From an uncultured Gemmatimonadaceae bacterium (GTDB taxonomy: Bacteria > Gemmatimonadota > Gemmatimonadetes > Gemmatimonadales > Gemmatimonadaceae), in contig CAWFCT010000022.1 in NCBI GenBank assembly GCA_963814345.1, positions 171,693 to 235,692 on the forward strand: 64,000 bases of DNA, in the 5' to 3' direction. The first letter of the stretch is position 1; each line of letters begins with the position of its first letter. The notes beneath the pieces are model-generated. The model was not told where the DNA came from, ran no database searches, and saw only the letters and a list, made by a program, of their open reading frames with translations. Positions 6,615-27,371 of this stretch are shown here, one piece after another. The translations under genes were made by a program, and so were the position numbers.

Positions 6615-7595
6615 GCGCGCCCCGCGCCACGAACGCTTCGAGGCAGCCCCGGGGGCGCCGCGCCTGGACCTGCTGGTCGCCAGCCAACTCGACATCTCCC
6701 GCAACCAGGCCGCCACGCTGATTGCGGAGGGCCACGTGCTCGTGCAGGGACGGCGGCAGAAGGCCAGCTTCCGCGCCGACCCCGGCATGTGGGTCGAGGT
6801 CACGGTGCCCGCGCCACCGTCGCGCGACGTGCTGGCGGAGCAGATTCCCCTGACCGTCGCCTACGAAGACGACGACGTGCTGGTGATCGACAAGCCGGCC
6901 GGCATGGTCGTGCATCCGGCGCCGGGCAACTGGACGGGCACCCTCGTGAACGCGCTCAAGGGGCGCGGGGGGAGCTGGCGGACGGGGGAGACGCCGAGCG
7001 GGCGGGAATCGTGCACCGGCTGGACAAGGAAACGTCGGGACTCCTGCTCGTGGCCAAGACCGACCGCGCGCATCGCGTGCTCGGCGCCGCGCTCCAGCGG
7101 CGGGAGATCACGAGGCGGTACGCGGCGCTGTGCTGGGGCCATCTGTCGGCGGAACGGGTGGAGGTGGACAAGCCGGTGGCGCGCGATCCCAACGACCGCA
7201 AACGGATGGCGGTGGTCGCCGACGGGCGCGAGGCCAGGACCCTGTTCTACCGCCTGGCGCGATTCGACGCCGTCGACCTGCTGCGCGCCCACCTCTTCAC
7301 GGGGCGCACGCATCAGATCCGCGTCCACCTGGCCTCGATCGGGCATCCCGTGGTGGGCGACGACACCTACGGGGGCGGGGGAGGGCGGCGTCTGGTTTCC
7401 CTGCCGCCCAAACGGCATTTTCTCCACGCAGCCTGGTTGGCCTTCCGGCATCCGGTGACCGGGGCGCCGGTCGAGTTGCGCTCGCCTCTGCCCGACGATC
7501 TGCGGACGGCGGTCGTGGCCGCCGCCGGCCGTGACGCCACCTTCGGAGACGTTGACCCGCTGGAATATTTCGGCTTCTTCCGCGTTGATGACTGA
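6607..7595 (+). pseudogene. rluD: 23S rRNA pseudouridine synthase RluD (RluA family), split by an apparent 1-nt frameshift at a G6 run (6967-6972)
   Basis: The frame of ORF 6607.. encodes the S4 domain and ..VIDKPAGMVVHPAPGNWTGTLVNALKGRGG. The frame of ORF 6789.. continues ..ELADGGDAERAGIVHRLDKETSGLLLVAKT...GRTHQIRVHL. The two join only if the G run has 7 (or 4) G instead of 6. Confidence 0.8.
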
Positions 7596-8007
7596 GTCTG
7601 CCGAGCTACGGACGCTGCTGTTCCGTGTGGGGACCGTCGTGTACGGCTGCGACATCGCCGCCGTCCGCGAGATCGTCCCGGTCCGCGCGGCCACCCGGTT
7701 GCCGGGAACGCCTCCCTACGTGGACGGGCTGATCAACCTGCGGGGGACCATTCTCACGGTGATCGACCTGGGGGCGCGGATGGAGGGCCGCCGGTCGTCT
7801 GACGAGGAGGGCTCGGTGATCATCGTCCAGGTCGGGGGGCGCCACCTGGGCCTGGTGGTCGGCGACGTCATGGATGTGACGCTGATGCGGGTCGACCCAC
7901 CCCCCGAGGACCGGCGCGACGACGTGGTGCGGGGGCTGGGACATCTGGGCGACACAGTCGTCATAATAGTTGATATCCCGGTGTTGGTGGGGCAGGTGTT
8001 GCTTTGA
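7588..8007 (+). CDS. cheW: CheW-like coupling protein (CheW-1)
   Basis: CheW fold motifs: LLFRVGTVVYGCDIAAVREIV, PPYVDGLINLRGTILTVIDLG, IIVQVGGRHLGLVVGDV. I chose the ATG at 7588, which overlaps the rluD stop (ATGACTGA). Confidence 0.85.
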   Translation: MTESAELRTLLFRVGTVVYGCDIAAVREIVPVRAATRLPGTPPYVDGLINLRGTILTVIDLGARMEGRRSSDEEGSVIIVQVGGRHLGLVVGDVMDVTLMRVDPPPEDRRDDVVRGLGHLGDTVVIIVDIPVLVGQVLL

Positions 8008-8010
8008 CTT

Positions 8011-8038
8011 TCGGTAGGTCGGTAGGTCGGTAGGTCGG
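8011..8038 (+). repeat. Perfect tandem 8-mer (TCGGTAGG) x3.5, i.e. seven GG runs separated by 2 nt
   Basis: Read directly: tcggtaggtcggtaggtcggtaggtcgg. It starts 4 nt after the cheW-1 stop, in the only sizeable gap of the Che/Mgl cluster. Confidence 0.9.
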
Positions 8039-8154
8039 CGGCATGTCCGCCGCGCATCCCGACGGGTCGACCCACGGACACACCACCGGGGTCTCGGCAA
8101 GACCCAACGGGCGCATTGGGGCCCGCGACAGCTTGGTCCAGACAGGAGAGACAC

Positions 8155-8517
8155 GTGAGCCACACGGTGTTGATTTGCGACGATGCGATCTTCATGCGGA
8201 CGATGGTGGGAGACATCCTGCAGTCGGCCGGGTTCGAGATCGTGGGAGAGGCCGAGACGGGGCTGCAGGCGGTGGAGAAGTACAAGCAGCTGCGCCCCGA
8301 CCTCGTGACGATGGACATCGTGATGCCCGACATGGGCGGCATCGACGCCGTGCGAGAGATCATGCAGTTCGATTCGCAGGCGAAGATTCTCATGTGCAGC
8401 GCGATGGGGCAGCAGGCACTGGTGGTCGAGGCCATCCAGGCCGGGGCCAAGGACTTCGTCGTCAAGCCGTTCCAGCCTAGCCGCGTGCTCGAAGCCGTGC
8501 AGCGCGTTCTGAGATAG
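8155..8517 (+). CDS. cheY: CheY single-domain response regulator
   Basis: Motifs VLICDDAIFMR, phospho-acceptor context LVTMDIVMPDMGG, and AGAKDFVVKPF. I chose the GTG at 8155, preceded by AGGAGAG. The ORF-track start at 8116 would add a non-conserved N-terminal extension. Confidence 0.88.
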   Translation: MSHTVLICDDAIFMRTMVGDILQSAGFEIVGEAETGLQAVEKYKQLRPDLVTMDIVMPDMGGIDAVREIMQFDSQAKILMCSAMGQQALVVEAIQAGAKDFVVKPFQPSRVLEAVQRVLR

Positions 8518-8525
8518 TCGGAGCG

Positions 8526-10499
8526 TTGGATACCTCACCGTACGCCGAGCTATTTCTCACCGAAAGCCGCGAACACGTTTCGGCGGTGAATCACTGGCTG
8601 TTGGAGTTGGAGCGCGGCGCCGGTGGGGACGAGCCGGTCCGCGAGCTCTTCCGCGCGGTGCACACGGTGAAGGGGATGAGTGCCACGATGGGCTACGCCG
8701 TCGTGGCGGAATTGTCGCACGAGATGGAGACCCTGCTCGATCGGGTCCGGCACCGGACCATGGAGATCACGCCGGAGGTGATGGACGTGCTGTTTCGCGC
8801 CGCTGACGTGCTCGAACAAGCCGTGGAGGCGTCGGTGGCCGGACGGCTGGACGACGTGCATCCCGAGGGGGTGCTCGATCGGCTGCGGGCCATGGGGCGC
8901 GCCACGCCGCGCGCGTCGGCCGCGATCGCCAGGCTGCCGATGGACGAGCACCTGTGGACGGTGCCGGCCCCGGACGGCCAGGGCACGGTGGTGCGCGTAC
9001 GCCTGGTCCGCGAAGCGCCGCTGCGCGGCGTGCGGGCGTTCCTCATCGTGCAGGAACTCGGGGCGCTCGGCGCGGTCACCGGGGTGTCGCCATCGCTCGA
9101 GGCACTGCAGGGTGACCGGTTCGAGTTCGATTTCGCGGTGCGCGTGCAGACCAGGGTGGCGGCGCAGGAGATCGAGCGCGTCGTACGGGCCGCCGGCGAC
9201 GTGATGCTGGTGGCCGTCGAGGGCGCGCCCGGGTTCGGGGCCGCGCCGACGACGCCGGAGGATCGCCCCTCGGGGCTGCTCGCCGCCGTCGAGAGTGCGG
9301 ACGCCGAGGAGCCACCGGCGAACGGCGACGCGCCGGCGCCGCCGGCGGCGCCGATCCGGGCACCCCGCCACGTCCGGGTGGATCAGCGCCGCCTGGATGC
9401 CCTGATGAACCTGATCGGCGAACTGGTGATCGCTCGCGGCCGCCTGCTGCAGATCGGCGGACGGCTGGCCGATCCCGCGCTCGACGAGACGCTGGCGCAG
9501 GCATCGCGATTGATCGCCGATTTGCGCGACGAGATCGTGACGAGCCGCATGGTGCCCGTCTGGCAGGTGTTCGACCGGTTTCCGCGGCTGGTGCGCGACG
9601 CCGCCCGCGGGTTGGACAAGGAGATCGATTTCTCCATCGAGGGCAAGGACATCGAACTCGACCGGTCGATGCTCGACGAGATCGGCGATCCGATCGTGCA
9701 CCTGCTCCGGAACGCCGTGGACCACGGCGTTGAGGCCCCGGACGATCGCGAACGGCTGGGCAAGCCGCGGGCGGGGCGGCTCGTGCTCTCGGCGGTGCGC
9801 GATCGATCGGCGGTCGTCATCAAGGTGAGCGACGACGGGCGGGGCATCGACCGGGCGCGTGTGCTGGAGAAGGCGAAGGCGACGGGGGTCGTGGACGCGA
9901 GCCGGACCGACCTCAGTGACGAGGAACTGGTGCGGCTGGTCGCGCGCCCGGGGTTCTCGACGGCCGACCAGGTGACCGGGCTGTCGGGGCGGGGCGTGGG
10001 AGTGGACGCGGTGATCTCCCGCGTCAGGGCGCTGGGTGGTTCGGTGGACATCAAGACGCAGACGGGGCTCGGGACCACGGTCACCCTCCGGCTGCCCCTC
10101 ACGCTGGCCATTCTCCGCGCCCTGATGTCGCGGGTGGCGGACGAGGTCTACGCGGTGCCGATGGCGCACGTGTGCGAGACGGTGGAACTGGCGGCCGAAC
10201 GGCTCCGGACGCTGCGCGGCCGCGAGGTGTTCACGGTGCGAGACGACGTGTTGCCGCTCCTGCGGCTCCGTGACATCGTGGGCCTGCCCCGGCGCGAGGA
10301 GGATGCGCGAGAGCACGTCATCGTGCTGGAGTTGGCGGACCGGCGGGCCGGGCTGGTCGTGGATGGGCTGGCGGGGCAGCAGGAGATCGTAGTCAAGCAG
10401 TACGATCCGGTGCGGACACAGGTGCAGGCGTTCAGCGGCGCGACGATTCTCGGGGACGGCGCCCCGGCGCTGATCCTCGACGTGGGCAGTCTCTCCTGA
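8526..10499 (+). CDS. cheA: CheA histidine kinase (P1 Hpt, P3, P4 HATPase, P5 CheW-like; no receiver domain)
   Basis: Hpt motif HTVKGMSATMG, P3/P4 motifs HLLRNAVDHG, DDGRGID and GRGVGVD, and a C-terminal CheW-like domain. TTG start at 8526 after GGAG. Confidence 0.93.
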   Translation: MDTSPYAELFLTESREHVSAVNHWLLELERGAGGDEPVRELFRAVHTVKGMSATMGYAVVAELSHEMETLLDRVRHRTMEITPEVMDVLFRAADVLEQAVEASVAGRLDDVHPEGVLDRLRAMGRATPRASAAIARLPMDEHLWTVPAPDGQGTVVRVRLVREAPLRGVRAFLIVQELGALGAVTGVSPSLEALQGDRFEFDFAVRVQTRVAAQEIERVVRAAGDVMLVAVEGAPGFGAAPTTPEDRPSGLLAAVESADAEEPPANGDAPAPPAAPIRAPRHVRVDQRRLDALMNLIGELVIARGRLLQIGGRLADPALDETLAQASRLIADLRDEIVTSRMVPVWQVFDRFPRLVRDAARGLDKEIDFSIEGKDIELDRSMLDEIGDPIVHLLRNAVDHGVEAPDDRERLGKPRAGRLVLSAVRDRSAVVIKVSDDGRGIDRARVLEKAKATGVVDASRTDLSDEELVRLVARPGFSTADQVTGLSGRGVGVDAVISRVRALGGSVDIKTQTGLGTTVTLRLPLTLAILRALMSRVADEVYAVPMAHVCETVELAAERLRTLRGREVFTVRDDVLPLLRLRDIVGLPRREEDAREHVIVLELADRRAGLVVDGLAGQQEIVVKQYDPVRTQVQAFSGATILGDGAPALILDVGSLS

Positions 10500-10511
10500 G
10501 GGAGCATTTGC

Positions 10512-11132
10512 ATGGAAGAGCTTCATTCCCTGAAGGCGTTGCAGCTGGATGCCCTGCGCGAGGTGGCCAACATCGGCGCCGGGCACGCGGCAACGGCTCT
10601 CTCACAGATGGTCGGGGGCACGATCATGATCAGCGTGCCGCGCATCAACATCCAGCGACTCGACGCCATTGCGCCGATGGTGGCGGCCCCCGACGAGCCG
10701 GTCGCGGCGGTGCTGCTGCACATTCTGGGCGACCTGTCGGGCCGGACGCTCCTCGTGTTCCCGAAGGCGGCGGCGCTCCAGTTGGCCGAGGTGATGCTGC
10801 ACCGGCCGAGCGGGTCGTCGACGGAGCTCGGGGAACTGGAGCAGTCGGCGATCAAGGAAGCCGGCAACATTCTCAGCAGCGCGTACATGAACGCGCTCAG
10901 CGAATTCATGGGCATGCTCCTGCTGCCGTCGCCGCCGGCGCTGGCGGTGGACATGTCGGCCGCGGTCCTCACCACGGCCTATCTGCAGTTCGGCACGAGC
11001 CGGGATTACGTGTTCTGCGTGGAGAGCGACTTCATGCTCCAGGGCGAGGCGGACCGCCTGCGCGGCTTCTTCCTGCTGCTGCCCGACCCGGCATCGCTGC
11101 AGGCCATTCTGCGCGCCATTCGCGTGACGTGA
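10512..11132 (+). CDS. cheC: CheC-family CheY-P phosphatase
   Basis: Two copies of the (D/S)xxxExxN active-site motif: DALREVANIGAG and SAIKEAGNILSS. 206 aa. Confidence 0.8.
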   Translation: MEELHSLKALQLDALREVANIGAGHAATALSQMVGGTIMISVPRINIQRLDAIAPMVAAPDEPVAAVLLHILGDLSGRTLLVFPKAAALQLAEVMLHRPSGSSTELGELEQSAIKEAGNILSSAYMNALSEFMGMLLLPSPPALAVDMSAAVLTTAYLQFGTSRDYVFCVESDFMLQGEADRLRGFFLLLPDPASLQAILRAIRVT

Positions 11133-11133
11133 C

Positions 11134-13824
11134 ATGGCCGCTTCGTCCCCTGGTTCCGCCCACGACCGCGAGATTCTGAGGTCGTTTGCCCGACGCATCG
11201 ATCCGTCGGACGCCGGCGCGCACAACAACCTGGGGGTGTTGTACTTCAACAAGGGGCTGCACGAGGAAGCGGTGCAGGCCTTCATGCGGGCGCTGGAACT
11301 CGATCCCCGCATGGAAGTGGCCCAACGCAACCTCGAGATCGCCTATTTCAACACCGGCTACTACGACCGGCGCGTGCCCGAGCTGCAGGATCGGGTACGC
11401 CGCGAGCCGGCGGACCGGGACGCGCGGTGGGAGTTGGCCCGCACGTACGCCCTGCTCGGCGAGCATCAGCAGGCCGTGGACGAATTCTCGGCGCTGCTCG
11501 CCCACACGCCGGACGACGTGGGCGCGATCCTGCAGTTGGGGCTTGCCGAACGCGCGCTCGGCCACACCGAGCGGGCGCAGCAGTGGCTGGAGCGGGCGCG
11601 GGACCTCGACCCCGACAGTTCGCTGGTCCACTTCTATCTCGGCGAGGTGGCCTACAATCGCGGGCTCAACGACGACGCCCTGGCGTCGCTGGAAATGGCA
11701 CTGGCCCTCAATCCCGACAACTACGACGCCCTCTACCTGATGGGATTCGTGCTCGGCGACATGGGGCGGCAGGAGGAGGCCCGCGCGCTGACCAACCGTG
11801 CCATCAAGCTCAATCCCACGCTGTCGCGCGCGCAGGCGAATCTCTCCATCGACCAGAACAAGCCGGAGCGCTACGAGGCGTTGGTCGGCGGGCGCCGGTC
11901 GCATCGCATGGAGGTGTCCCCCGACGGCCAGTTGGCGCACTACAACCTCGGGCTCGCTTTCCGGCAGAAGGGGTACTACCCCGAGGCGCTGCGCGAATAC
12001 CGGCTCGCCCTCGACCGCGGCGAGGACGAGGACCTCGTGCGGCAGGCGATGGCCGAAGTCCACCTGGTGAGTGGCGACGTGAGCGGGGCGCTGGCGCTCT
12101 ACGACCGGCTCCTCGAGCGCATGCCCGCGAGCCCCAAGCTCTGGAACGAGCGCGGCGTGGCGCTGCACCAGGACGGGCGCGCGGCCGAGGCGGAGGAGAG
12201 CTATCGGCGGGCCATCGCCGCCGACCGGCGCTACGCGCTGGCCCACAACAACCTGGGAGTCGCGCTCGGCCAGTCGGGGGACGGGGATGCCGCGCTCGCC
12301 GAGTTCCGCGCCGCCCTGGATGCGCGTCCCGACCTCGTGAAGGCGCGGCTGAACCTCGCGCTGCTGCTCTACAAGGCCAAGCGGCTGCCGATGGCGCTCG
12401 AGGCATATCGCCAGGTGCTGGCCACCGAGCCGGAACACCCGGCGGCCTGGAACGGCGCCGGCGTGGTGCTCGCCGATTTTCACAAGTTCGAGGATGCGCG
12501 GAACGCCTTTGCGCGGGCCATCCAGGCCCGGCCGCAGTACGCGGAGGCGCACTACAACCTGAGCTTCTGTCTCTCGAATCTGGGCGATTTCGAGGGCGCG
12601 CTGCGCGAGACCAAACTGGCGCTGGAGATGGAGCCGTACTACATGGGGCAGAAGTTCGAGCTCGCCATCGACCTGCAGTACGAGGACCCGGATCTTTCCA
12701 TCCAGCCCGATCTGGGCGGTGAGGCCCATACCGCGGAGGCGATCGAGGCGTTCGACTTCGACGCCGGCCTGCTGGACTCCGTGTTCACGCAGCTGGCGCC
12801 GGCGCCGGGGCCGCTGCCGCCGGTGGAGACGGACCCGTACAAGATGGCGGCCGACTTCCTGTCCAAGGGGCTCGTCGAACGGGCCCAGATGGAGGTGCGG
12901 CGGGCGCTGGCCCAGGGCGCCGACTGCGTGGCCGGTAATGTGCTGCTCGGCCAGACGTTCATGCGACAGGGGGTGTACGGGGAGGCACTGGAGCGTTTCC
13001 GCGAAGCCCGCCGCGCGGCGCCCGACCACCCGATGGCGATGCACGGCGAGGCGCGCTGTCTGCTCAACCTGGGACAGGGCGCGGCGGCGCTGCCCCTCGT
13101 CGAGAAACTGGTGCTGCATGCCTCGGAGGACATCGACACGCTGATGCTCGCGGCCGGCGTCCGCGCCGCGGCGGGCGATCCCGCCGCCGCGCTGGCCACG
13201 CTCGACGCGGCCCGCCGCGTGGCGCCGATGCGGGCCGACGTGCATCGTGAGATGGGCGACATCGCGCGGCGGCTGGGCGACCTGGAAGGCGCGATCATCA
13301 ACTATCGCAACGCCCTGGCGCTCGATCCGCAGTTCGCCGGCGTGCGCTACGAACTGGCGCATCTGCTGATCGAGAAGCGACAGCTGGCGGCGGCGGAGTA
13401 CGAGTTGCTCTCCGCCCTGGAGACGGTGCCCACGTATGCGCAGGCCACGCTGGAGTTGGCCCGGCTGCGCCGTATGACCGGGCGGGCCGAATCGGCGCTG
13501 CCGCTGCTCATCGAACTCCTGCAGCGCGACCCGTACCACTTCGACGCCCTGATCGCCCTCGGGGAGACGCTCCTCGCGCTCGGGCGCAAGGAGGACGCGG
13601 TCACCGCGTTCGCCCGCGTGCTCCGCTTCGATCCCCACCATGTGGGCGCGCTCTACCACGAAGGCGTCCTGTTCGCCGAACGCCGTCACTTTCGAGAAGC
13701 CATCGACCGGTGGGAGCAGGTGCGCACGTTGGCGCCGGCCACCGAATACGCCCGCCGGGCCCGCCGCGAGATCCGCTCGGCCACCGACCTGCAACGCATC
13801 TTCGCTGAACGCGCAACCACCTGA
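11134..13824 (+). CDS. Large tetratricopeptide-repeat (TPR) protein, 896 aa
   Basis: TPR-like 34-aa repeats run end to end (e.g. AHNNLGVLYFNKGLHEEAVQAFMRALELDP, ALAHNNLGVALGQSGDGDAALAEFRAALDARP). No other domain was recognised. It starts 1 nt after the cheC stop. Confidence 0.8.
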   Translation: MAASSPGSAHDREILRSFARRIDPSDAGAHNNLGVLYFNKGLHEEAVQAFMRALELDPRMEVAQRNLEIAYFNTGYYDRRVPELQDRVRREPADRDARWELARTYALLGEHQQAVDEFSALLAHTPDDVGAILQLGLAERALGHTERAQQWLERARDLDPDSSLVHFYLGEVAYNRGLNDDALASLEMALALNPDNYDALYLMGFVLGDMGRQEEARALTNRAIKLNPTLSRAQANLSIDQNKPERYEALVGGRRSHRMEVSPDGQLAHYNLGLAFRQKGYYPEALREYRLALDRGEDEDLVRQAMAEVHLVSGDVSGALALYDRLLERMPASPKLWNERGVALHQDGRAAEAEESYRRAIAADRRYALAHNNLGVALGQSGDGDAALAEFRAALDARPDLVKARLNLALLLYKAKRLPMALEAYRQVLATEPEHPAAWNGAGVVLADFHKFEDARNAFARAIQARPQYAEAHYNLSFCLSNLGDFEGALRETKLALEMEPYYMGQKFELAIDLQYEDPDLSIQPDLGGEAHTAEAIEAFDFDAGLLDSVFTQLAPAPGPLPPVETDPYKMAADFLSKGLVERAQMEVRRALAQGADCVAGNVLLGQTFMRQGVYGEALERFREARRAAPDHPMAMHGEARCLLNLGQGAAALPLVEKLVLHASEDIDTLMLAAGVRAAAGDPAAALATLDAARRVAPMRADVHREMGDIARRLGDLEGAIINYRNALALDPQFAGVRYELAHLLIEKRQLAAAEYELLSALETVPTYAQATLELARLRRMTGRAESALPLLIELLQRDPYHFDALIALGETLLALGRKEDAVTAFARVLRFDPHHVGALYHEGVLFAERRHFREAIDRWEQVRTLAPATEYARRARREIRSATDLQRIFAERATT

Positions 13825-13826
13825 CC

Positions 13827-16636: not shown

Positions 16637-16656
16637 CCTCCACCTCCCATCGCTCC

Positions 16657-17262: not shown

Positions 17263-17265
17263 CGC

Positions 17266-19224: not shown

Positions 19225-19225
19225 C

Positions 19226-20842
19226 ATGGCCATCAAGGGCAGCTTGAAGGAGGCCAGCCTCCCCGACGTGCTCCAACTCCTGGCGATGGGCCGGAAGACC
19301 GGATGCCTGAGCGTCAACCACCGGACGAATTTCGGCTACATCTATTTCGACAAGGGGCGCATCTCGTACGCGTCGATCGTGAACCGGCGCGACCGCTTGG
19401 GCGACATGCTGGTGAAGAACGGCATCATCTCCGCCGAGCAGCTCAAGTCGGCCATCGAGGCGCAGGATCAGGAGCGCGAGCGGCGCATCGGCGAGCTGCT
19501 GGTGGAGATGGGCTTCCTGTCGCGCGACGCGCTGCGCCAGCACATCCGCGAGCAGATCGAGGAGGCGGTGTACTTCCTGTTCACCTGGAATCAGGGCTCG
19601 TTCAACTTCGAGGCCGACGTCCAGCCGGACGAGCAGGAATTCCTGGTGTCGATCAATCCCGAGTCGCTGCTGCTCGAGGGCGCGCGACGCGTGGACGAGT
19701 GGACGCTCGTCGAGAAGAAGATCCCCACGTTCGACATCGTGTTCGAGGTCGACCGGCCGAAGATCCTGGCCAGCGACCTCGATCTGACGCCGGAGCAGCG
19801 GGGGCTGCTGGAGCTGGTCGACGGCCGGCGCGACGTGCAGCAGATCATCGACGCCTCGGGCATGGGCGAGTTCGAAGTGGGGAAGGTGCTGTACGGCCTC
19901 GCCACCACCGGATTTCTGCACCGCATCGGCACGTCGAAGGCGGGCGACGCCCAGGTGTCGGAAGCCCGGGTACAGGAGCATTACAACCTCGGCGTCGCGT
20001 TCTACAAGACGGGGATGTTCGACGAAGCGGTGCGCGAGTTCCGGCGCGTGATGGACCTCAAGCCCAACGATCCCTCGGCGCAGTTCTACCTCGGGCTCGT
20101 GCAGCTGCGCCAGGAACGGTGGCACGATGCGCTGGCGACGTTCGAGGCCGCGGTAGCGCGCCCCGGCGCCACCGCTGCGGTGTATCACAACCTCGCGTAC
20201 GCGCTCGAACGGTTGGGGCGCCTGGCCGAGGCGCAGCGGGCGCTGCAGGAGGCGTCGGCCCGCAGCCACGGGGCGAGCCCGCAGATCGAAACCTCGATCG
20301 GCATCGTCGCCCTACGCTCCGGCGACCTGGCGGCGGCCGATGAGGCGCTGACGGCCGCGCGCCCGTTGTGGTCCCGGGCACCGTCATCGGCCTGGTATCA
20401 CTACGCGGCACTCACGGCGGCCCTGCTCGGCGACCTCGCGCGGGCGCAGACCATTCTCGACGAAGCCGTGGGCGCGCATCCGCACAGCGCCGTGCTCTAC
20501 AACAATCTTGCCGTGGTGCGCGAACGCCAGAACGCCGGTGAGGCGGCGGCGGCGGCGCTCGACCGGGCGCTGTCGGAGGATCCCTCCGTGCCGCAGGTGC
20601 ACAAGAACCTCGGCGACGTGGCCTACCGCGCCGGGCGGTTCGACGAGGCGCTCGAGTCGTACCAGCGCGCCGTCAAAGCGAAGCCGGATCTCGGGGACGA
20701 CGTCTACCTCAAGCTCGGCAACATCAAGTTCCGCCAACAGCAGAAGGAGGAGGCGCTGCGGCTCTGGCAGCGCGCGCTCGAACTCGATCCGACCAACGCC
20801 ATCGTGCGTACCAACCTCGACGCCGTGCGGCAGGCGCTCTGA
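19226..20842 (+). CDS. PATAN (DUF4388) domain protein with long C-terminal TPR region (second paralog)
   Basis: I chose the ATG at 19226. The N-terminus GSLKEASLPDVLQLLAMGRKTGCLSV...GYIYFDKGRISYA is the PATAN signature. TPR repeats run from about aa 250 to the end. The ORF-track start at 18845 overlaps the upstream gene. Confidence 0.78.
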   Translation: MAIKGSLKEASLPDVLQLLAMGRKTGCLSVNHRTNFGYIYFDKGRISYASIVNRRDRLGDMLVKNGIISAEQLKSAIEAQDQERERRIGELLVEMGFLSRDALRQHIREQIEEAVYFLFTWNQGSFNFEADVQPDEQEFLVSINPESLLLEGARRVDEWTLVEKKIPTFDIVFEVDRPKILASDLDLTPEQRGLLELVDGRRDVQQIIDASGMGEFEVGKVLYGLATTGFLHRIGTSKAGDAQVSEARVQEHYNLGVAFYKTGMFDEAVREFRRVMDLKPNDPSAQFYLGLVQLRQERWHDALATFEAAVARPGATAAVYHNLAYALERLGRLAEAQRALQEASARSHGASPQIETSIGIVALRSGDLAAADEALTAARPLWSRAPSSAWYHYAALTAALLGDLARAQTILDEAVGAHPHSAVLYNNLAVVRERQNAGEAAAAALDRALSEDPSVPQVHKNLGDVAYRAGRFDEALESYQRAVKAKPDLGDDVYLKLGNIKFRQQQKEEALRLWQRALELDPTNAIVRTNLDAVRQAL

Positions 20843-21666
20843 TGACGATCGCCGAGCCGCAGGACGAGGAGTTTCAGGCGCTGCTCGACAAGATCTCGCG
20901 CGATCGCGGCTTCCACTGCGCCAGCTACAAGGCGACCTGCCTGCGCCGCCGGGTCGGGGTGCGCATGCGGGCACGCGGGCTGCACCGCTACGTGGATTAC
21001 GCGGGTCTGCTCGACGCCGACCTGGGGGAATACGACCTGCTGCTCGATGCGTTGACGATCAACGTCACGAAGCTGTTCCGGAACCCCGAGGTGTACCACG
21101 CCATGCTGCGCGACGTGGTCCCCGCGGTGTGGGCAGCGGCCCCGTCCCGCATTCGCGTGTGGAGCGCCGGGTGCGCGTCGGGCGAGGAGCCGTATTCGCT
21201 GGCCGCCCTGTTCCACCTGCACGCGGCGGCGCGGGGCGAACTCCACCGCCTGCCGCGCGTGGAGATTCTGGGCACCGACATCGACCGTCGCAGTCTCGTG
21301 GCGGCCGAGCGCGGCGAGTTCGAGGAGCGCGATTTCAGCGAGACACCCGAGGCCTGGCGGTCGGCCTATTTCGCGCCCGCGGCGCCGTTCACGGTGGTCC
21401 CCGAGTTGCGCCGGCTGGTGAAGTTCCGGCAACATGATCTGTTGCGCGAGCCCCCGCCGCAGGGCGGGCACGACTTGATCGTGTGCCGAAATGCGATCAT
21501 CTACTTCGATCGGGCGTCGCAGGAGCGGCTGTTCGAATCCTTCTACTCGGCGTTGGCCCCCGGAGGGTTCCTGGTACTCGGTAAGGTGGAAACGCTTTTC
21601 GGTCGTGCGCGGCAGTTGTTCCGCCCCGTAGACGCCCGCGAACGGATCTTCGTGCGCCCCGCATGA
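20842..21666 (+). CDS. cheR: CheR chemotaxis protein methyltransferase
   Basis: N-terminal CheR helical domain (YKATCLRRRVGVRMR) plus a SAM-binding domain (RVWSAGCASGEEPYSLA, ILGTDID, DLIVCRNAIIYF). Confidence 0.9.
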   Translation: MTIAEPQDEEFQALLDKISRDRGFHCASYKATCLRRRVGVRMRARGLHRYVDYAGLLDADLGEYDLLLDALTINVTKLFRNPEVYHAMLRDVVPAVWAAAPSRIRVWSAGCASGEEPYSLAALFHLHAAARGELHRLPRVEILGTDIDRRSLVAAERGEFEERDFSETPEAWRSAYFAPAAPFTVVPELRRLVKFRQHDLLREPPPQGGHDLIVCRNAIIYFDRASQERLFESFYSALAPGGFLVLGKVETLFGRARQLFRPVDARERIFVRPA

Positions 21667-22145
21667 GCGAACAACGGGTCGGGATCGCCGATCTCGCGGT
21701 CGCCGCGGGGGAGGGAACGCTCTGCACGCTCGGGCTCGGCTCCTGCGTCGCGATCGTGCTCTACGACGCGGTGGTGCGGGTGGGCGGGCTGGCGCACGTC
21801 CTGTTGCCCGAACCGGCCATGTCGCGCCTGCACGACAACCCGGCGCGCTTCCCGGAGACCGCCGTGCCCGCCCTCGTCGCGCGGATGCGGGAGCTCGGCG
21901 CCGACCCGGCCCGGATGACGGCCCGCCTCGTCGGCGGGGCCAGCATGTTCTCCAGCCTGCTGCCCCGCGGCGCGCCGACGATCGGCGGGCGAAACGTGGA
22001 TGCCTCGCGGCAGGCGCTGCAGCGAGCCGGCATCACGATCGCGGGCGAGGACGTGGGCATGGAGCATGGGCGCAGCGTCTACCTGCACATCGCCGACGGC
22101 CAGGTCGAAGTGCGCTCGCTCGCGCGAGGGAGTCGTGTCCTCTAA
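21663..22145 (+). CDS. cheD: CheD chemoreceptor glutamine deamidase
   Basis: 160 aa. The GLGSCVAIVLYD motif contains the catalytic Cys. ATGA overlap with cheR. Confidence 0.85.
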   Translation: MSEQRVGIADLAVAAGEGTLCTLGLGSCVAIVLYDAVVRVGGLAHVLLPEPAMSRLHDNPARFPETAVPALVARMRELGADPARMTARLVGGASMFSSLLPRGAPTIGGRNVDASRQALQRAGITIAGEDVGMEHGRSVYLHIADGQVEVRSLARGSRVL

Positions 22146-23202
22146 GCCCTCCGTCCTGGTGGTGGACGATAGCGCGCTCATGCGGCGCGTGATCGCAGAG
22201 CTGGTCACCGAATCGGAGGAGTTCACCGTGGTCGGCGTGGCGCGCAACGGGCGGGAGGCGATTGCGCGCGTGCAGGCGCTCAACCCCGACCTCGTGACAC
22301 TCGACATCGAGATGCCGGAGATGGACGGGCTGCAGGCGCTGGCGCAGATCATGCGCGATGCCCCCCGCCCGGTGGTGATGCTGAGCGGGGCCGAGACCAT
22401 GGATGGGCGCGACGCCGCGCTACGCGCGCTCGAACTCGGCGCCGTGGACTTCGTGCGCAAGCCGTCGGGCCCGATCAGTCTGGACCTCGCCGTCGTGGGC
22501 GAGCGGTTGCGCGGCGCGCTCCGAGCCGCCGCGCAGGCGAACCTGCGCGGCCTGCAGACGCCGGTGCGAAGCCCCGGGGCGCCCCGCCGTGGGCCAGGCC
22601 GGCCGGCGGCGTCCCGCCCCACGCGCGCCGTGGCGATCGCGGCCTCGACCGGCGGCCCGCGCGCCCTCACGCAGGTCCTGCCGGGGCTGCCGGCTGCGCT
22701 CGACGCCGCGGTGTTCGTGGTGCAACACATGCCCGCTGGATTCACGCGCAGCCTGGCGCAGCGGCTCGACGCGATGGGGCCGCTGCCCGTGCACGAGGCC
22801 GAGGCGGGCCAGGTCGTCCGCAGCGGGCATGTATACGTGGCGCCCGGCGGCAAGCACATGCGCGTGGCCGACGACGCCCAACCGGTGATCGTGCTCGACG
22901 AGACGCCGCCCGTGTGGGGCGTGCGACCGGCCGCCGATCCCCTCTTCCGGTCGGTGGCCGCCGTGTTCGGCGACCGGTGTGTAGGCGTGGTGCTCACCGG
23001 CATGGGACGCGACGGCGCCGACGGGCTGCGGGCCATCCGCGATGCGGGGGGCCGCCGCGTCGTGCAGGACCGGGACAGCTCGATCATCTACGGCATGCCG
23101 CACGCCGCGCTGGAGGCAGCGGGCGCCGACCGCGTGGCGCCGCTGGCGAGCGTCGCGGCCGCTGTCGTCGCGCTGCTCGCCACGGTGGGTGAGCCGGCAT
23201 GA
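22135..23202 (+). CDS. cheB: CheB protein-glutamate methylesterase (REC + esterase)
   Basis: I chose the GTG at 22135, after GAGGGAG. REC domain: VLVVDDSALMR, LVTLDIEMPEMDG. Esterase domain: AIAASTGGP, VVQHMP, VVLTGMGRDG. Confidence 0.9.
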   Translation: MSSKPSVLVVDDSALMRRVIAELVTESEEFTVVGVARNGREAIARVQALNPDLVTLDIEMPEMDGLQALAQIMRDAPRPVVMLSGAETMDGRDAALRALELGAVDFVRKPSGPISLDLAVVGERLRGALRAAAQANLRGLQTPVRSPGAPRRGPGRPAASRPTRAVAIAASTGGPRALTQVLPGLPAALDAAVFVVQHMPAGFTRSLAQRLDAMGPLPVHEAEAGQVVRSGHVYVAPGGKHMRVADDAQPVIVLDETPPVWGVRPAADPLFRSVAAVFGDRCVGVVLTGMGRDGADGLRAIRDAGGRRVVQDRDSSIIYGMPHAALEAAGADRVAPLASVAAAVVALLATVGEPA

Positions 23203-23996
23203 TCGACGAGCACTGGGGCCTGCTACGCAAACCGTTCGCGAACACGCCTGATCCGGCCTTCGTGTACCACTCCCCGGTGTTCGACGAGGGATTCGCCCGC
23301 CTGCTGTACGACGTCACGGATCTGCGAGGGGGCCTGTCGCTGGTCACGGGCGAGATCGGCTGCGGCAAGACAATGCTCGTGGAGGCACTGCGCGCCCGGC
23401 TCGGCGGCACCGCCTACGAGCCCTGGGTCGTGGAATATCCGCGCCTCACCGGCGCCCAGTTGCTGCAGTTCGTCGCCGGAGCGGCCGCGCTGTCCACCCC
23501 GCCCAAGAACAAGCCCGCCCTGGTGGGGGCGCTGCGGGGCCGGCTGGCCGAGCTGCATGCCGCGGGACGGCGTCCCGTGTTGATCGTGGACGAGGCACAG
23601 TTGGCGAGCCCGAGCCTGCTCGAGGAACTGCGGTTACTCACCAACTTCGAGGACCGAACCGACAAGCACCTCCACGTGGTGCTGCTGGGGCAGCCGGAGT
23701 TGCGCGACCGCGTCGTGAAGCGTCCGCAGATCGACCAGCGCGTGAGCCTGCGGTTCCATCTCGATCCGCTCGACGCCGATGACGTGCAGGCGTACGTCCG
23801 GCATCGGCTGCGGGTGGCGGGGGCGATGCACGAGATCTTCACGGCCGAGGCGCTTGTCGCCCTGGCGGCGCGGAGCGGTGGTGTTCCGCGCGTCGTGAAC
23901 AACCTGGCCATGCAGGCGCTGTTCGTTGGGGCGATGCGCGGACTGCCGCGCGTCGACGAGCGACTGATACACGACGTGGCGGACGATCGGCAATGA
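23199..23996 (+). CDS. ExeA/GspA/MshM-like AAA+ ATPase (AAA_22-type)
   Basis: Walker A LVTGEIGCGKTML, Walker B VLIVDEAQL, and the characteristic N-terminus FANTPDPAFVYHSPVFDEGFARL together with LHVVLLGQPEL. ATGA overlaps at both ends. Confidence 0.75.
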   Translation: MIDEHWGLLRKPFANTPDPAFVYHSPVFDEGFARLLYDVTDLRGGLSLVTGEIGCGKTMLVEALRARLGGTAYEPWVVEYPRLTGAQLLQFVAGAAALSTPPKNKPALVGALRGRLAELHAAGRRPVLIVDEAQLASPSLLEELRLLTNFEDRTDKHLHVVLLGQPELRDRVVKRPQIDQRVSLRFHLDPLDADDVQAYVRHRLRVAGAMHEIFTAEALVALAARSGGVPRVVNNLAMQALFVGAMRGLPRVDERLIHDVADDRQ

Positions 23997-24649
23997 AGAC
24001 ACCCACCATCAGCTACCGCGAATGGCTCCACCGGACGCCGACGCCGCCGGCGTCGGTCGCGCCGGTGGTCGAGCCCGGGCAGCCGTCTCCCGAAGCGCCC
24101 GCGCCTCCGGCCGGGGAGCCGGACGCACACCGCGCCGCGCCGGCGGAGGTGGCCGCTCCCACCAGGCCGCGGCCCGAGGCTGCGCCGGCGCCGGTGCCCG
24201 CGGCGGCGTCTGCGGCGAACGCGGTGGAGCATCTGGTGTTCCGGGTGGGGCGCGAGTTGTTCGCGCTGCCACTCGACGTCGTCGAGGAAGTGTTCGACAT
24301 CGACCGCATCCAGCGCATTCCGGAGATGAGCCGCACGATGTTGGGGGTGCTCACGTTGCGCGGCGCCACCGTGCCGCTGTACGCGCCGTCGATTCCGCTG
24401 GGCGTGCCCGATAGCGACCATCGGGCGGCACTCGTCTTCGTTCGGGCGAGAGGGACGGTGGCCCTCGCCGTGGATGATGTGGACGACGTGCTGGAGATCG
24501 CCGGCGACGACGTGCAGCGCCCGCCGCTGGATTTCACCGACGGCCTGCTGTCGGGCGTCACCCGTCGTGGCGCGGACCTCATCGGCGTGCTCGATGCCGA
24601 CGCGCTCATCGCCGCCTGTCGCGCCGAACCGGTGCTGGAGACCGCATGA
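23993..24649 (+). CDS. CheW-like protein with ~70-aa Pro/Ala-rich N-terminal extension
   Basis: The N-terminus is PTPPASVAPVVEPGQPSPEAPAPPAGEP...PRPEAAPAPVP. The CheW fold follows: LVFRVGRELFALPLDVVEEV, MLGVLTLRGATVPLY. Confidence 0.8.
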   Translation: MKTPTISYREWLHRTPTPPASVAPVVEPGQPSPEAPAPPAGEPDAHRAAPAEVAAPTRPRPEAAPAPVPAAASAANAVEHLVFRVGRELFALPLDVVEEVFDIDRIQRIPEMSRTMLGVLTLRGATVPLYAPSIPLGVPDSDHRAALVFVRARGTVALAVDDVDDVLEIAGDDVQRPPLDFTDGLLSGVTRRGADLIGVLDADALIAACRAEPVLETA

Positions 24650-25128
24650 CCAAGCCTCGTATTGCCAAGATCGTCTGGTTCCGCCTTGGTTCGGACTACT
24701 TCGCGGCCGACATCTTTTCGGTGGAGCGTGTGCTGCGCTACCAGCCGCCGACCACGGTGCCCAACGTGCCCGAATGGATCGAAGGGGTGATCGAGTATCA
24801 GGGGCGGGTGGTCCCGGTGGTGAGCCTGCGCCGCCGGTTCCAGCTCCCCGCCGTGCCGGCCACGCCCGAGACCCGCGTGCTGGTCCTCAAGTCGGGCGAT
24901 GAGTGGGTGGGGGTGGTGGTCGACGCCGTGCTCGAAGTCGCCAGCTTCGATGAAGCGTTGCTGTCGCCCCCGCCGCCGCTCTTCCGGGGGCTCGCCGGTG
25001 AATACCTGCGGGGCATCGTCCGCCTGGACGACCGCCTGCTGATCTATCTCGACGTCGACCGTCTGCTGTCGTCCGACGACCGGCTGGCCCTGGAGCGTGC
25101 GACCGGGGAGGCGCTGCCGAATGGCTGA
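24646..25128 (+). CDS. cheW: CheW-like coupling protein
   Basis: Motifs WFRLGSDYFAADIFSVERVL, PEWIEGVIEYQGRVVPVVSLRRRF and VLVLKSGDEWVGVVVDAV. Confidence 0.85.
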   Translation: MTKPRIAKIVWFRLGSDYFAADIFSVERVLRYQPPTTVPNVPEWIEGVIEYQGRVVPVVSLRRRFQLPAVPATPETRVLVLKSGDEWVGVVVDAVLEVASFDEALLSPPPPLFRGLAGEYLRGIVRLDDRLLIYLDVDRLLSSDDRLALERATGEALPNG

Positions 25129-25966
25129 CGGCCCGCTCGGCGGGTACCGGGCACAGTACGCGGCGCTGGACTCGCGGCTCGACGCGCCGAGCGCCGGCGC
25201 CGAGCGCGACGCGCTGAAAGCCGAGATCGTGGCGTTCTTCCGAGAGGTGGAGCGGGACGTCGTCGAACTCACGAAGCTGCGCGACGAGATCAAGACGCTC
25301 GTCGACAAGTGGAAGACGCTGGCCGCGCCATCGCTCGTCCCGCAGTTCGACGCGGCGCGGCCGGTGGTTCACGCCGACCACATCGGGGCCTCCACGTTCA
25401 TCGAGAAGGGTTGGAGCCGGCTGTCGCTGGGCGAGTACGAGGCCGCCGAAGCGGCCCTGCGCAAGGCCATCGAACTCTCGCCCAACGATCCGCAATCCGA
25501 AGCGCTGCTCGGCTGGGCGCTGATGCTTCAGGAGAAGTACGACGACGCGCTGCTGACCTTCCAGCAGGTGCTCATCCGCGAGCCGATGAACGCTCTGGCG
25601 CGCATCAACGTCGGCTATATCTGTCTCAAGAAGCGGATCTTCGGCGAGTCCATCGAACACCTGTCCAAGGCCATCCGGCTGGACAACGACAAGAAGGCGA
25701 CGCTGTACGCGCACTTCTACCTGGGGCTGGTGTATCTGGAGCGCGATATGTTCGAGGACGCCCAGACCTTTTTCCAGAAGACCATCGCGCTGGGACCGAA
25801 CCTGATCGAGGCCTATTACGAGCTGGGACGCGCGTACTGGTTCAATGGCCAGCGTGACGAGGCGATGCAGACGTGGCGCGACGGATTCGCCATGAACAAG
25901 TTCAATCCATGGGGAAAGCGGTGCGCCGAAGTCCTGAAGACGGTGGAGGCGGGCGGGGAGCCATAG
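25121..25966 (+). CDS. TPR-repeat protein
   Basis: I chose the ATG at 25121 (8-nt overlap with cheW). An N-terminal coiled region is followed by TPRs (EAEAALRKAIELSPNDPQSEALLGWALMLQEKYDDALLTFQQVL ...). Confidence 0.7.
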   Translation: MADGPLGGYRAQYAALDSRLDAPSAGAERDALKAEIVAFFREVERDVVELTKLRDEIKTLVDKWKTLAAPSLVPQFDAARPVVHADHIGASTFIEKGWSRLSLGEYEAAEAALRKAIELSPNDPQSEALLGWALMLQEKYDDALLTFQQVLIREPMNALARINVGYICLKKRIFGESIEHLSKAIRLDNDKKATLYAHFYLGLVYLERDMFEDAQTFFQKTIALGPNLIEAYYELGRAYWFNGQRDEAMQTWRDGFAMNKFNPWGKRCAEVLKTVEAGGEP

Positions 25967-25998
25967 CCGGACGGCGCGCCCGACCGGCCGTGCGCGCC

Positions 25999-26964
25999 AT
26001 GCTGCTCGCGTGCGCGGTGGCGCTCGTCGTGCCGGCGGTGGCGTGGAGCCAGGCGGCCGCCCCGCTTCGCTTCGACCGCGGGCGGTTCACGGTGGTCGCC
26101 TATCCGGAGGACGCGCGGCTGGCGCGGACCATTCTCCAGACCGCGCTGGTGCACGACACCTTTCCATGGCTGCCGCGCCCGCGGGAGCACGTGCTGATCG
26201 CCATCGCTCCCGACTACGCGCGATTCCGCGAATGGGCCGGCCCCGACGCGCCCGAATGGGGCGCGGCGCTCGCCTTTCCCGATACGCGACGGATCGTGCT
26301 GCAGGGCAGTCGGTCGGGCGCCGACGCCGGGAACCCCGTCGAGGTCGTGCGCCACGAACTGGCCCACCTGGCGCTCCACGAGTATCTGGGCGGCCTGCCG
26401 CCGCGCTGGTTCGACGAGGGCTATGCCAGTTACTCGGCCCACGAACTCTCGCGCGACGATGCGCTTGCGGCCAATCTCGCGCTGGCGCTCGAAGGGGTGC
26501 CCACCCTGCGCCAGTTGGAGGGGTACTTCTCGCAGGGGGCAACGACGGCGCGCGCCGGGTACGCGCTGGCGGCGAGCGCCGTAGCCGATATGGCCGCGCT
26601 GGATCCCCGGCATGGCCTGACTCATGTGTTTGCGGCCTGGCGGGAGACCGGATCCCTCGATCGGGCGCTGCGCCGGTCCGACGGAATGACGCTGGACGGC
26701 TTCGAAGCGGACTGGCGAAAGCAGGCGCGCCGGCGCTACGGGGCGCTGGCCCTCATGGAAGATCTGACCCTGCTCGGGATCCTGTTCCTGGTGTTCGTGC
26801 TGCCGCTCTGGATTGCGCGGCGCCGGCGTGATCGCTCCCGGATGGAGGCCTTGAAGGCGGCCGACGCGGCCGCCGAGGCGTTGGAGCGTGAAAGCGCGCT
26901 GGCCGAGCTGCTGGGACCGTGGCCGCCGGCGGGCGAAACGGGCCGAGAACCGGGCGATGTGTAG
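25999..26964 (+). CDS. Membrane-anchored HExxH protein (peptidase MA-like)
   Basis: Signal-like N-terminus MLLACAVALVVPAVAWSQ, a VVRHELAHLALHEY zinc motif with downstream DEGYASY, and a C-terminal TM helix LTLLGILFLVFVLPLWIARRRR. The start is uncertain; GTG 25990 is an alternative. Confidence 0.55.
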   Translation: MLLACAVALVVPAVAWSQAAAPLRFDRGRFTVVAYPEDARLARTILQTALVHDTFPWLPRPREHVLIAIAPDYARFREWAGPDAPEWGAALAFPDTRRIVLQGSRSGADAGNPVEVVRHELAHLALHEYLGGLPPRWFDEGYASYSAHELSRDDALAANLALALEGVPTLRQLEGYFSQGATTARAGYALAASAVADMAALDPRHGLTHVFAAWRETGSLDRALRRSDGMTLDGFEADWRKQARRRYGALALMEDLTLLGILFLVFVLPLWIARRRRDRSRMEALKAADAAAEALERESALAELLGPWPPAGETGREPGDV

Positions 26965-27303: not shown

Positions 27304-27371
27304 CTAGGGGTAAAGGGGGAACTACGTTCCGTTGTCTTGGGTACGATTTACATAGTGCGGAGGAGCCGACC

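Follow-up and report, generated by a model that had tools for sequence, protein, structure and literature searches.

Here we describe a cluster of 20 co-directional genes (g01 to g20, all on the + strand) at positions 7588–26964 of a 64,000-nucleotide stretch of DNA from an uncultured Gemmatimonadaceae soil bacterium (contig CAWFCT010000022.1, positions 171,693 to 235,692; hereafter the window, with a G+C content of ~69–70%). The cluster combines a chemotaxis-type (Che) pathway, likely with a non-canonical output, with a module formed by the GTPase MglA and its partner MglB (MglAB) and with a new family of tandem DnaA-type ATPases (2xDnaA). Genes were defined by open reading frame listing, a filter on third-codon-position G+C, and translation. 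An earlier note on this DNA, made from the sequence alone, had counted about 19 genes although its own list gave 20; Pfam annotation of all 20 proteins bore out every one of its domain calls.

The Che genes lie in two groups. The first consists of CheW (g01, 7588–8007, 139 aa; Pfam CheW E 1.4e-28), whose start overlaps the stop of rluD by 8 nt; a CheY-type single-domain response regulator (g02, 8155–8517, 120 aa; Response_reg E 1.2e-30) with its acceptor residues in place (DD9-10, D54, S82, and K104); CheA (g03, 8526–10499, 657 aa), with Hpt, P2, dimerisation, HATPase, and CheW domains and no receiver domain by Pfam (no Response_reg match); and a predicted CheC-type phosphatase of phosphorylated CheY (CheY-P; g04, 10512–11132, 206 aa; CheC E 2e-21). 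The second group contains the methyltransferase CheR (g13, 20842–21666; CheR E 1.3e-47), CheD (g14, 21663–22145; CheD E 1.4e-26), and CheB with receiver and methylesterase domains (g15, 22135–23202; CheB_methylest E 3.6e-64). These are followed by an AAA_22 ATPase of the ExeA or PEP-CTERM-associated type (g16, 23199–23996; AAA_22 E 4.5e-21), a CheW-domain protein (g17, 23993–24649; CheW at residues 80–207, E 3.9e-25) with a Pro/Ala-rich N-terminal extension of ~75 aa, and a plain CheW (g18, 24646–25128, 160 aa; CheW E 7.3e-38). The g16 product scored 179 bits against NCBIfam TIGR03015, below the model cutoff, and found no match among solved structures.

By Pfam, the parts of a Che pathway are thus present: CheA with P1–P5, CheW, CheY with its acceptor aspartate, and the adaptation enzymes CheR and CheB. 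No chemoreceptor (MCPsignal) match was found in the annotated proteins of the window or in related clusters, so receptors must be encoded elsewhere. The best NCBIfam models were haloarchaeal CheA and CheY and Thermotogales CheC, all below family cutoffs, and together with the presence of both CheC and CheD they are suggestive of an F1-like class.

Between the two Che groups lie four genes for MglA, MglB, and related Roadblock proteins. A TPR plus Roadblock/LC7 protein (g07, 14962–15819, 285 aa; Pfam TPR_19 and Robl_LC7 E 1e-8) precedes a single Roadblock/LC7 protein (g08, 15816–16163, 115 aa; Robl_LC7 E 1.8e-8; PDB 7yh1_D E 3.8e-5). The next gene, g09, with coordinates corrected to 16160–16636 (158 aa), matches Myxococcus xanthus MglB (PDB 6h5b_B E 7.9e-8), with a weak Pfam Robl_LC7 match and an NCBIfam MglB match below cutoff (E 1.9e-4); on these matches it is a recognisable MglB and a putative GTPase-activating protein (GAP) for MglA. 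It ends 20 nt upstream of g10 (16657–17262, 201 aa), which aligns with M. xanthus MglA over residues 1–194 (PDB 6h17_A E 1.1e-73) at ~60% identity, with TDRTLFFDF and YTVPGQ conserved. The g10 protein carries the motifs GPGRSGKT (P-loop), TVPGQ, and NKQD, and the group-1 MglA signatures of a switch-II Thr in place of Asp (TVPGQ) and an intrinsic switch-I Arg. Judged by this alignment and these motifs, g10 is a bona fide group-1 MglA.

Further genes encode TPR proteins, PATAN proteins, and a peptidase. The g05 product (11134–13824, 896 aa) is an all-TPR cytoplasmic protein by Pfam TPR families. Two proteins combine a PATAN domain (DUF4388, PF14332) with TPR, namely g06 (13827–14969, 380 aa; DUF4388 E 6.2e-30) and g12 (19226–20842, 538 aa; DUF4388 E 2.4e-40), the start of the latter being corrected here. 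At the 3' end of the cluster are a smaller TPR protein (g19, 25121–25966, 281 aa; Pfam TPR families) and an MA-clan metallopeptidase-like protein with a HELAH motif (g20, 25996–26964; Peptidase_MA_2 E 2.3e-9). A signal-peptide-like Met makes 25996 a more probable start for g20 than the alternative GTG at 25873. According to a hydropathy scan, g20 is the only membrane protein of the cluster, with an N-terminal signal or transmembrane segment, a second transmembrane segment near residue 250–270, and a tail of ~50 aa.

The remaining gene, g11 (17266–19224, 652 aa), encodes a tandem DnaA-domain-III AAA+ protein in which Pfam Bac_DnaA matches two stretches (E 8.5e-88). The protein is laid out as an AAA+ module (residues 1–235), a helical middle domain (~259–363), a second AAA+ module (375–603), and an acidic C-terminal motif. 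Comparison with Bacillus subtilis DnaA domain III (PDB 8bv3) gave two matches (E 4.5e-42), and the same structure ranked first in a Foldseek search with the AlphaFold (AF2) model of g11 (TMt 0.93, root-mean-square deviation 1.9 Å). The model has a mean pLDDT of 82, places a confident helical domain between the AAA+ modules, and shows disordered linkers leading to a short C-terminal helical motif. The Walker A and Walker B motifs and the box VII arginine are retained in both halves, and the initiator-specific helical insertion is present; the second half no longer has the sensor-II arginine in this genome. The C-terminal acidic peptide, ...EKVVWEL.DV.SRVVEELG (residues ~625–652, window 19140–19224), was found in all lineages examined, and the homologues P0136, P0163, P0184, P0202, and P0276 carry the motif [EK]K.[VI]W.W..[LV]..R.[VI]EE[LM] after a disordered linker. 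It resembles acidic C-terminal peptides that dock into TPR domains, and we speculate about a role as a TPR-docking tail.

More than 1,500 relatives of g11 were found. The top 120 were full-length at 50–100% identity, and all their named sources were Gemmatimonadota; overall, 2xDnaA was found in this phylum and in three genomes of lower G+C content described below, one of them labelled Cloacimonetes. These proteins are annotated only as 'DnaA/Hda family' or 'chromosomal replication initiator'. Two such identities were rejected for g11. Relatives of g11 lack PF08299 and PF11638, both of which are carried by true DnaA matches, and Hda is a single domain III of ~230 aa versus the 652 aa and two modules of g11.

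A role in the cell cycle was nonetheless weighed, in which 2xDnaA forms mixed oligomers with DnaA, or acts on DnaA-ATP as Hda does, and thereby links replication initiation or division to signals of polarity or from the environment in budding-prone bacteria. The close structural match of both modules to DnaA domain III, with the initiator-specific insertion, would fit such a role, as would a combined score of 399 bits against an NCBI DnaA cutoff of 343.9 bits and the position of the cluster next to the dcw division genes. However, Pfam finds only Bac_DnaA in g11 and none of DnaA domains I, II, or IV; no clamp-binding motif was seen by eye at the N-terminus (VSLDTRMRFEHF), where no formal motif search was made; g11 is constantly accompanied by PATAN/TPR signalling proteins and a membrane peptidase rather than by replication genes; and the version of the cluster in low-G+C genomes lies away from dcw. 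We therefore regard a cell cycle function as highly improbable. Evidently, 2xDnaA is a widespread, unnamed protein family that has left replication for signalling.

The gene order of the cluster was conserved across related genomes. Scanning one genome per GTDB species gave at least 599 pattern matches, and a g11 relative is encoded in at least 482 of them; the best 80 of these were compared as loci, with all named sources in Gemmatimonadota and g11 identities of 47–98%. Searches of these loci with all 20 proteins (tblastn) recovered the full order g01 to g20 wherever the contig was long enough, with shared flanks of rluD upstream and tRNA-Val, a gene for a 583-aa TPR protein, and rsmH/dcw downstream. 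Linkage of che and mgl genes thus recurs in dozens of species-level genomes, and the grounds that the earlier note had named for giving up its reading, a lack of such conservation, do not apply. Median identities across the loci were 87% for MglA, 77% for CheC, and 73% for g19. MglA and MglB adjoined g11 in 70/70 assessable loci, and CheC was always directly upstream of the large TPR gene. The AAA_22 gene after cheB was optional, being present in 25/46 loci.

Presence and absence of the two che halves coincided. Among the 30 loci readable on both sides, 26 contained both halves (scored by CheA and CheR), four contained neither, and none contained only one. Four of the che-less loci retain a CheY ortholog (~71% identity) directly upstream of the big TPR gene. 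On a midpoint-rooted neighbour-joining tree of g11, drawn without support values, the che-less loci form one cluster that is nested among che-containing loci and also includes one che-containing locus (L015). This nesting and the retained CheY suggest that the che genes were secondarily lost.

Junctions between genes were tight throughout the cluster. All 11 start/stop overlaps listed in the earlier note were verified from coordinates: 4-nt ATGA overlaps at 15816, 16160, 21663, 23199, 23993, and 24646; 8-nt overlaps at 7588, 14962, and 25121; an 11-nt overlap at 22135; and a 1-nt overlap (TGATG) at 20842. As had also been noted, the only sizeable gap is one of 147 nt (8008–8154), between g01 and g02. 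The location of every cluster gene on the + strand is likewise correct, but it is not distinctive, as nearly every gene in the window is on this strand. Median junction lengths ranged from -11 to +27 nt across the 80 related loci, and since equally tight junctions recur in these loci, the compact packing is not due to chance. Tight spacing extends to the boundaries between modules, with medians of 21 nt from CheC to the TPR gene and -1 nt from the second PATAN gene to CheR. In a scan of the loci, terminator-like hairpins were no commoner than in shuffled sequence, and no promoter or terminator signal exceeded the level of shuffled controls; the consensus used probably does not suit Gemmatimonadota.

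These patterns bear on whether the modules are only neighbours, that is, an ordinary che operon and a separate Mgl module interleaved in a stable region and functioning independently. Synteny from ileS to dcw is family-wide, so the adjacency could persist by inertia; each module also occurs without the other, and we found no literature linking che and Mgl modules in open-access papers and preprints. Against this stand the shared fate of both che halves in all 30 fully readable loci, the persistence of start/stop overlaps at module boundaries, a linkage of che genes to the core at a different site within Gemmatimonadota, and the recurrence of che, TPR, PATAN, and 2xDnaA genes in another order and at another site in a far more distant lineage (both described below). 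We consider independent neighbours a very unlikely explanation.

Searching 50%-identity representatives with g11, followed by gene-context look-ups, extended the comparison to deeper lineages and revealed a modular cluster. Many full-length 2xDnaA proteins were found at 30–45% identity, and their contexts took several forms. A form with the kinase half has the order rluD-CheW-CheY-CheA-CheC-TPR-PATAN-TPR/Roadblock-Roadblock-MglB-MglA-2xDnaA-PATAN-TPR-peptidase, and the same upstream half was seen in a second context. A form without the kinase reads rluD-CheY-CheC-core-tRNA-Val-TPR-rsmH, a che-free form reads rluD-core, and a minimal form consists of rluD-2xDnaA-PATAN/TPR-peptidase. In the kinase-half, CheY-CheC, and che-free lineages, g11 identity was 30–39%. 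Another Gemmatimonadota genome combines the core with CheR-CheB-CheW-peptidase at a different chromosomal site. A PATAN gene of the g12 type adjoined g11 homologues in almost every context found. The exception was a Gemmatimonadetes metagenome-assembled genome (L088, GCA_003697105.1), in which 2xDnaA has no recorded PATAN, che, or mgl neighbour.

Two of these deeper loci showed further peculiarities. In L088, the tandem DnaA-type homologue lies between proteins of 867 aa and 200 aa without recorded Pfam matches, and two bactofilin genes are located ~5 kb upstream (3765–4667 and 7373–12701 of that locus). In the deeper lineage L089, CheA is only 500 aa (4227–5729) with no recorded P2 or dimerisation match, and the large TPR protein has shrunk to 188 aa (6369–6935), while the other Mgl core genes are intact.

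The most distant clusters came from three low-G+C genomes (L083, 49.0% G+C; L087, 44.6%; and L091), one of which is labelled 'Candidatus Cloacimonetes bacterium 4572_55'. Here the order is CheW-CheY-CheA-AAA22-long CheW-CheC-TPR (~820 aa)-PATAN-2xDnaA, with different flanks and not near dcw, and the clusters of all three genomes contain no MglA, MglB, or Roadblock genes. Identities between window and L087 proteins were 67% for CheY, 49% for CheC, 39% for the AAA_22 ATPase, 37% for CheA, and ~30% for PATAN and 2xDnaA, and g05 aligns collinearly with TPR826 of L087 along 891 aa (E 2e-69). On this evidence, the proteins of the low-G+C cluster are orthologous to those of the window.

Since the Mgl core occurs without the kinase in other Gemmatimonadota and che genes occur without Mgl in the low-G+C genomes, the cluster is modular. 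Across the contexts compared, the most consistently conserved element is 2xDnaA beside PATAN, usually with the large TPR protein and, in Gemmatimonadota, with the MA peptidase. The linkage of che genes to the TPR-PATAN-2xDnaA core where Mgl is absent suggests that Che is wired to this core and that Mgl is an added layer. Most likely, then, the Che pathway connects to the TPR/PATAN/2xDnaA core, and the Mgl and Roadblock proteins represent a Gemmatimonadota-specific layer. This changes the earlier proposal of a 'hard-wired chemosensory-to-polarity device'. The Che-Mgl linkage that it assumed is indeed conserved, but MglA and MglB are not the most consistent partners of the che genes, and a device of this kind is putative.

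The two che halves share one fate, CheY and CheC remain beside the core in genomes without the kinase, an independent linkage occurs in distant genomes, and overlaps span the module boundaries. On these grounds, the region could form one functionally integrated signalling system of Gemmatimonadota with three co-inherited modules, a reading to which we give an even chance. The first module would be a receptor-less Che pathway, made up of CheW, CheY, CheA, CheC, CheR, CheD, CheB, the AAA_22 ATPase, the Pro-rich CheW, and the plain CheW. The second would consist of the MglA GTPase, MglB, and two further Roadblock proteins. The third, an older core, would comprise the ~900-aa TPR protein, the PATAN-TPR proteins, 2xDnaA, the small TPR protein, and the membrane-anchored MA-type peptidase.

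In such a system, chemoreceptors encoded elsewhere would control CheA, which would phosphorylate CheY, and CheC would read and turn over CheY-P beside the big TPR scaffold. The TPR, PATAN, and Roadblock proteins may relay the CheY-P state to MglB and MglA and so set the cellular location of MglA-GTP. An ATP-dependent complex of 2xDnaA and PATAN-TPR, tethered to the envelope via the cytoplasmic tail of the peptidase, could act with MglA-GTP to switch or position a polar structure, for which type IV pili, a single polar flagellum, and the growing or division pole are candidates. Adaptation would come from CheR, CheD, and CheB, and the AAA_22 ATPase and Pro-rich CheW would probably tether or position the receptor array, like ParC and ParP of Vibrio. 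We infer all steps of this scheme from the genes present, the domains identified in them, their tight packing, and the way in which they are co-inherited, all of which were observed directly.

Several observations weigh against an integrated system of this kind. MglA and MglB are dispensable in the low-G+C cluster, as are the che genes in several Gemmatimonadota. No chemoreceptor or motility-organelle gene was found in or beside the cluster at any locus examined, and the best-matching models, together with CheC and CheD, correspond to the make-up of classical flagellar and archaellar pathways. The whole neighbourhood from ileS to dcw is syntenic across the family, and with local gene order so generally stable, conserved adjacency is weaker evidence here than it would be elsewhere. 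Finally, we infer the operon status of the cluster from gene spacing only.

Gene annotations from a cultured relative are consistent with a version of the cluster in Gemmatimonas phototrophica AP64 (NZ_CP011454.1). Seven genes of the region 1,873,383–1,889,101 were recovered from the supplement of a published study (PMC9862903): CheW at 1,873,383, a receiver gene at 1,873,850, a DUF4388 gene at 1,879,654, directly followed at 1,880,861 by a gene for a 237-aa 'GTPase domain protein', CheB at 1,885,605, a 319-aa hypothetical protein, and an M23 protein. Spacing and annotation from CheW to CheB match the window, save for the Roadblock trio, which is seemingly missing there; in the same portion of the supplement, genes annotated as Roadblock lie at 1.54 and 2.04 Mb instead. 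The GTPase gene and cheB are separated by an interval of only 4.0 kb for three genes, the exact content of which is a guess. Going by these partial annotations, G. phototrophica probably carries a seemingly shorter version of the cluster.

This strain also bears on the relationship of the cluster to flagellar chemotaxis. Its CheA RS15835 was reported to be induced together with flagellar genes (PMC9862903) and would lie ~1.86 Mb from the cluster, a distance estimated from the position of locus tag RS15800 and not read directly. G. phototrophica thus probably has a second Che kinase besides that of the cluster, and since this second CheA is co-induced with flagellar genes, the Che pathway of the cluster need not be the flagellar one.

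One alternative is that the Che proteins of the cluster perform ordinary flagellar chemotaxis and that the Mgl, TPR, PATAN, and 2xDnaA proteins act upstream of it, as an analogue of HubP-ParC-ParP or FlhF/FlhG that marks a pole, places the array, the flagellum, or both, and hands them on at division. Cultured Gemmatimonas has one polar flagellum (PMC9862903), the order of cheB, ATPase, Pro-rich CheW, and cheW resembles the parC-parP arrangement in che operons, the cluster adjoins dcw in almost all loci, and the Che set is F1-like in composition, all of which would suit such a role. Yet CheY and CheC stay with the core after CheA, CheW, CheR, and CheB are gone, which a core that did no more than place arrays would not readily account for. 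In some genomes the core also occurs without any che genes, the AAA_22 ATPase is missing from about half of the che-containing loci, and the additional CheA that appears to be present in G. phototrophica points away from the cluster as the flagellar pathway. On balance, this alternative seems unlikely to us.

Within the integrated system that we favour, the part played by 2xDnaA invites a more specific and more tentative proposal. Together with its PATAN-TPR partner and the MA peptidase, 2xDnaA may be an unrecognised ATP-driven assembly, derived from the filament-forming ATPase of the initiator and repurposed for pole organisation under the control of Che, MglA/MglB, or both, depending on the lineage; we think this possible, while doubting that it holds as stated. 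If true, chemosensing would have been coupled to Ras-like polarity control a second time, and independently, in Gemmatimonadota, and the connectors would be encoded in the same operon. Even in Myxococcus, whose corresponding genes are scattered, the link between chemosensory signalling and MglA/MglB is understood only in part. A single conserved block holding kinase, response regulator, phosphatase, GTPase, GAP, Roadblock proteins, and scaffolds therefore offers a short list of candidate connectors. In addition, the AAA_22 ATPase together with the Pro-rich CheW may correspond to the ParC/ParP array tether without being of the ParA type. Soils harbour abundant Gemmatimonadota, and to our knowledge almost nothing is known of the cell biology of this phylum. 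With a version of the cluster probably present in G. phototrophica, to judge from its partly recovered annotation, these questions could be addressed in a cultured strain.

The genes surrounding the cluster are those of a stable chromosomal region. Upstream are ileS, a dksA-like gene, two copies of lspA, and rluD, and downstream are tRNA-Val(TAC), a gene for a secreted 583-aa TPR protein, and then rsmH, ftsI, mur genes, ftsA, and ftsZ (dcw). The tRNA-Val(TAC) gene (27230–27304, + strand; Rfam 74 bits, ARAGORN) is a conserved right-hand boundary of the cluster. ARAGORN placed it at the same position in six related loci (L001, L003, L009, L025, L081, and L084), and the position is kept even in lineages where g11 identity is only 30–37%; in two of the related loci with the conserved tRNA-Val, a tRNA-Asp also precedes rsmH. 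The 583-aa TPR protein (27372–29123) has a signal peptide and occurs at the same position across loci at 29–96% identity. At the head of dcw, rsmH is usually preceded by mraZ, and in the window this TPR gene occupies that place.

On the 5' side, rluD (6607–7595) is split over two reading frames, with the frame change at a G-run (6966–6973). Joining the frames at the run GCGGGGGGAG gives a normal RluD sequence (...KGRGGELADGGDAERAGIVHRLDKETSG...), and related loci have an intact rluD of 331–334 aa; the split probably reflects an indel that long-read assembly introduced at the homopolymer, and rluD is unlikely to be a real pseudogene. The two lspA genes (5510–6103 and 6036–6614) are adjacent, and each encodes a full Peptidase_A8 domain. 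Only one lspA is present in the deeper lineages L081, L084, and L089, which indicates that the pair is a family-level tandem duplication.

Further downstream, an open reading frame of 621 aa (47059–48924) lies between an M23 peptidase gene and ftsY. Its coding signal is strong, with a third-position G+C of 0.90, and its product has two hydrophobic segments at the N-terminus and matches no Pfam family. Genes unrelated to the Che-Mgl cluster occupy the 3' end of the window (53722–63943). They encode a di-haem cytochrome c peroxidase resembling MauG, a DUF7790 protein, a protein of 1,053 aa that contains an M14 carboxypeptidase domain, and the HlyD-type adaptor and AcrB-type pump of an RND efflux pair. 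Identification of the region as a defence island was rejected, as PADLOC gave generic P-loop and TPR matches and no specific model, and the locus is core chromosome with fixed flanks.

The Che-Mgl-2xDnaA block appears not to have been described previously. In agreement with the earlier note, which did not recognise the architecture as a characterised system, we found no published description of it in open-access papers and preprints, although such absence is not proof. Individual elements have been noted before. Gemmatimonadetes are among the phyla with group-1 MglA in the survey of Wuichet and Søgaard-Andersen (PMC4316618), whose relevant passages describe variable group-1 MglA neighbourhoods with occasional PATAN genes and mention no linkage of mglA to che genes. 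Recruitment of MglAB to a chemosensory system has been proposed for Deltaproteobacteria (Guzzo et al., PMC4546325), in a text that contains no match for 'Gemmatimon'. PilB1, the pilus motor of Synechocystis, is a binding partner of PATAN-REC regulators, and PATAN genes often neighbour mglA and mglB; a comparative paper on Geobacter che clusters does not mention MglA, Roadblock, PATAN, TPR, or DnaA proteins.

Compared with known systems, each part of the cluster shows both likeness and difference. Like members of the DnaA/Hda family, g11 is built from DnaA domain III with its Walker A, Walker B, and box VII residues in each half; unlike them, it has two modules per chain joined by a conserved helical domain, carries a conserved acidic C-terminal peptide, and is encoded among signalling genes. 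The Che set shares CheA, CheW, CheY, CheC, CheD, CheR, and CheB with F1-type pathways of Bacillus, Thermotoga, and Archaea, but no flagellar genes or receptors are nearby and the pathway is split around a non-Che module. In ParP, a Pro-rich linker connects the N-terminal ParC-binding domain to a CheW-like domain, and parC lies just upstream in che operons (PMC5706961). The g16-g17 pair shares this layout with ParC/ParP of Vibrio and Pseudomonas, g17 overlapping the g16 stop by 4 nt; however, g16 resembles AAA_22/TIGR03015 and not ParA/MinD-type ATPases, and the pair is optional. A group-1 MglA beside MglB and PATAN also recalls the mglA/mglB-PATAN neighbourhoods surveyed by Makarova et al. (2006) and Wuichet and Søgaard-Andersen (2014), in the searched passages of which che genes, a 2xDnaA ATPase, and a peptidase are not reported.

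A further close parallel is the Frz pathway with MglA, MglB, and RomR in M. xanthus, to which the earlier note had compared the cluster. This comparison holds as an analogy only, as Pfam found no Frz-defining feature in the cluster. Both organisms combine a Che-type pathway with a group-1 MglA and a Roadblock GAP. In addition, the extra Roadblock proteins of the window recall MglC, and its TPR and PATAN proteins bring to mind SgmX and the PATAN candidates that are named together with SopA (PMC11580455). In the window, though, the genes are physically interleaved in one block, whereas mglA is described as lying apart from its partners in Myxococcus, and in Bdellovibrio, in the passages of PMC4316618 that treat them. 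The window lacks an FrzCD-like receptor, a CheA-receiver fusion (FrzE), a dual-receiver FrzZ, and a RomR/RomX-like gene. In contrast to Frz, it contains CheC and CheD, along with the tandem DnaA-type ATPase and the MA peptidase.

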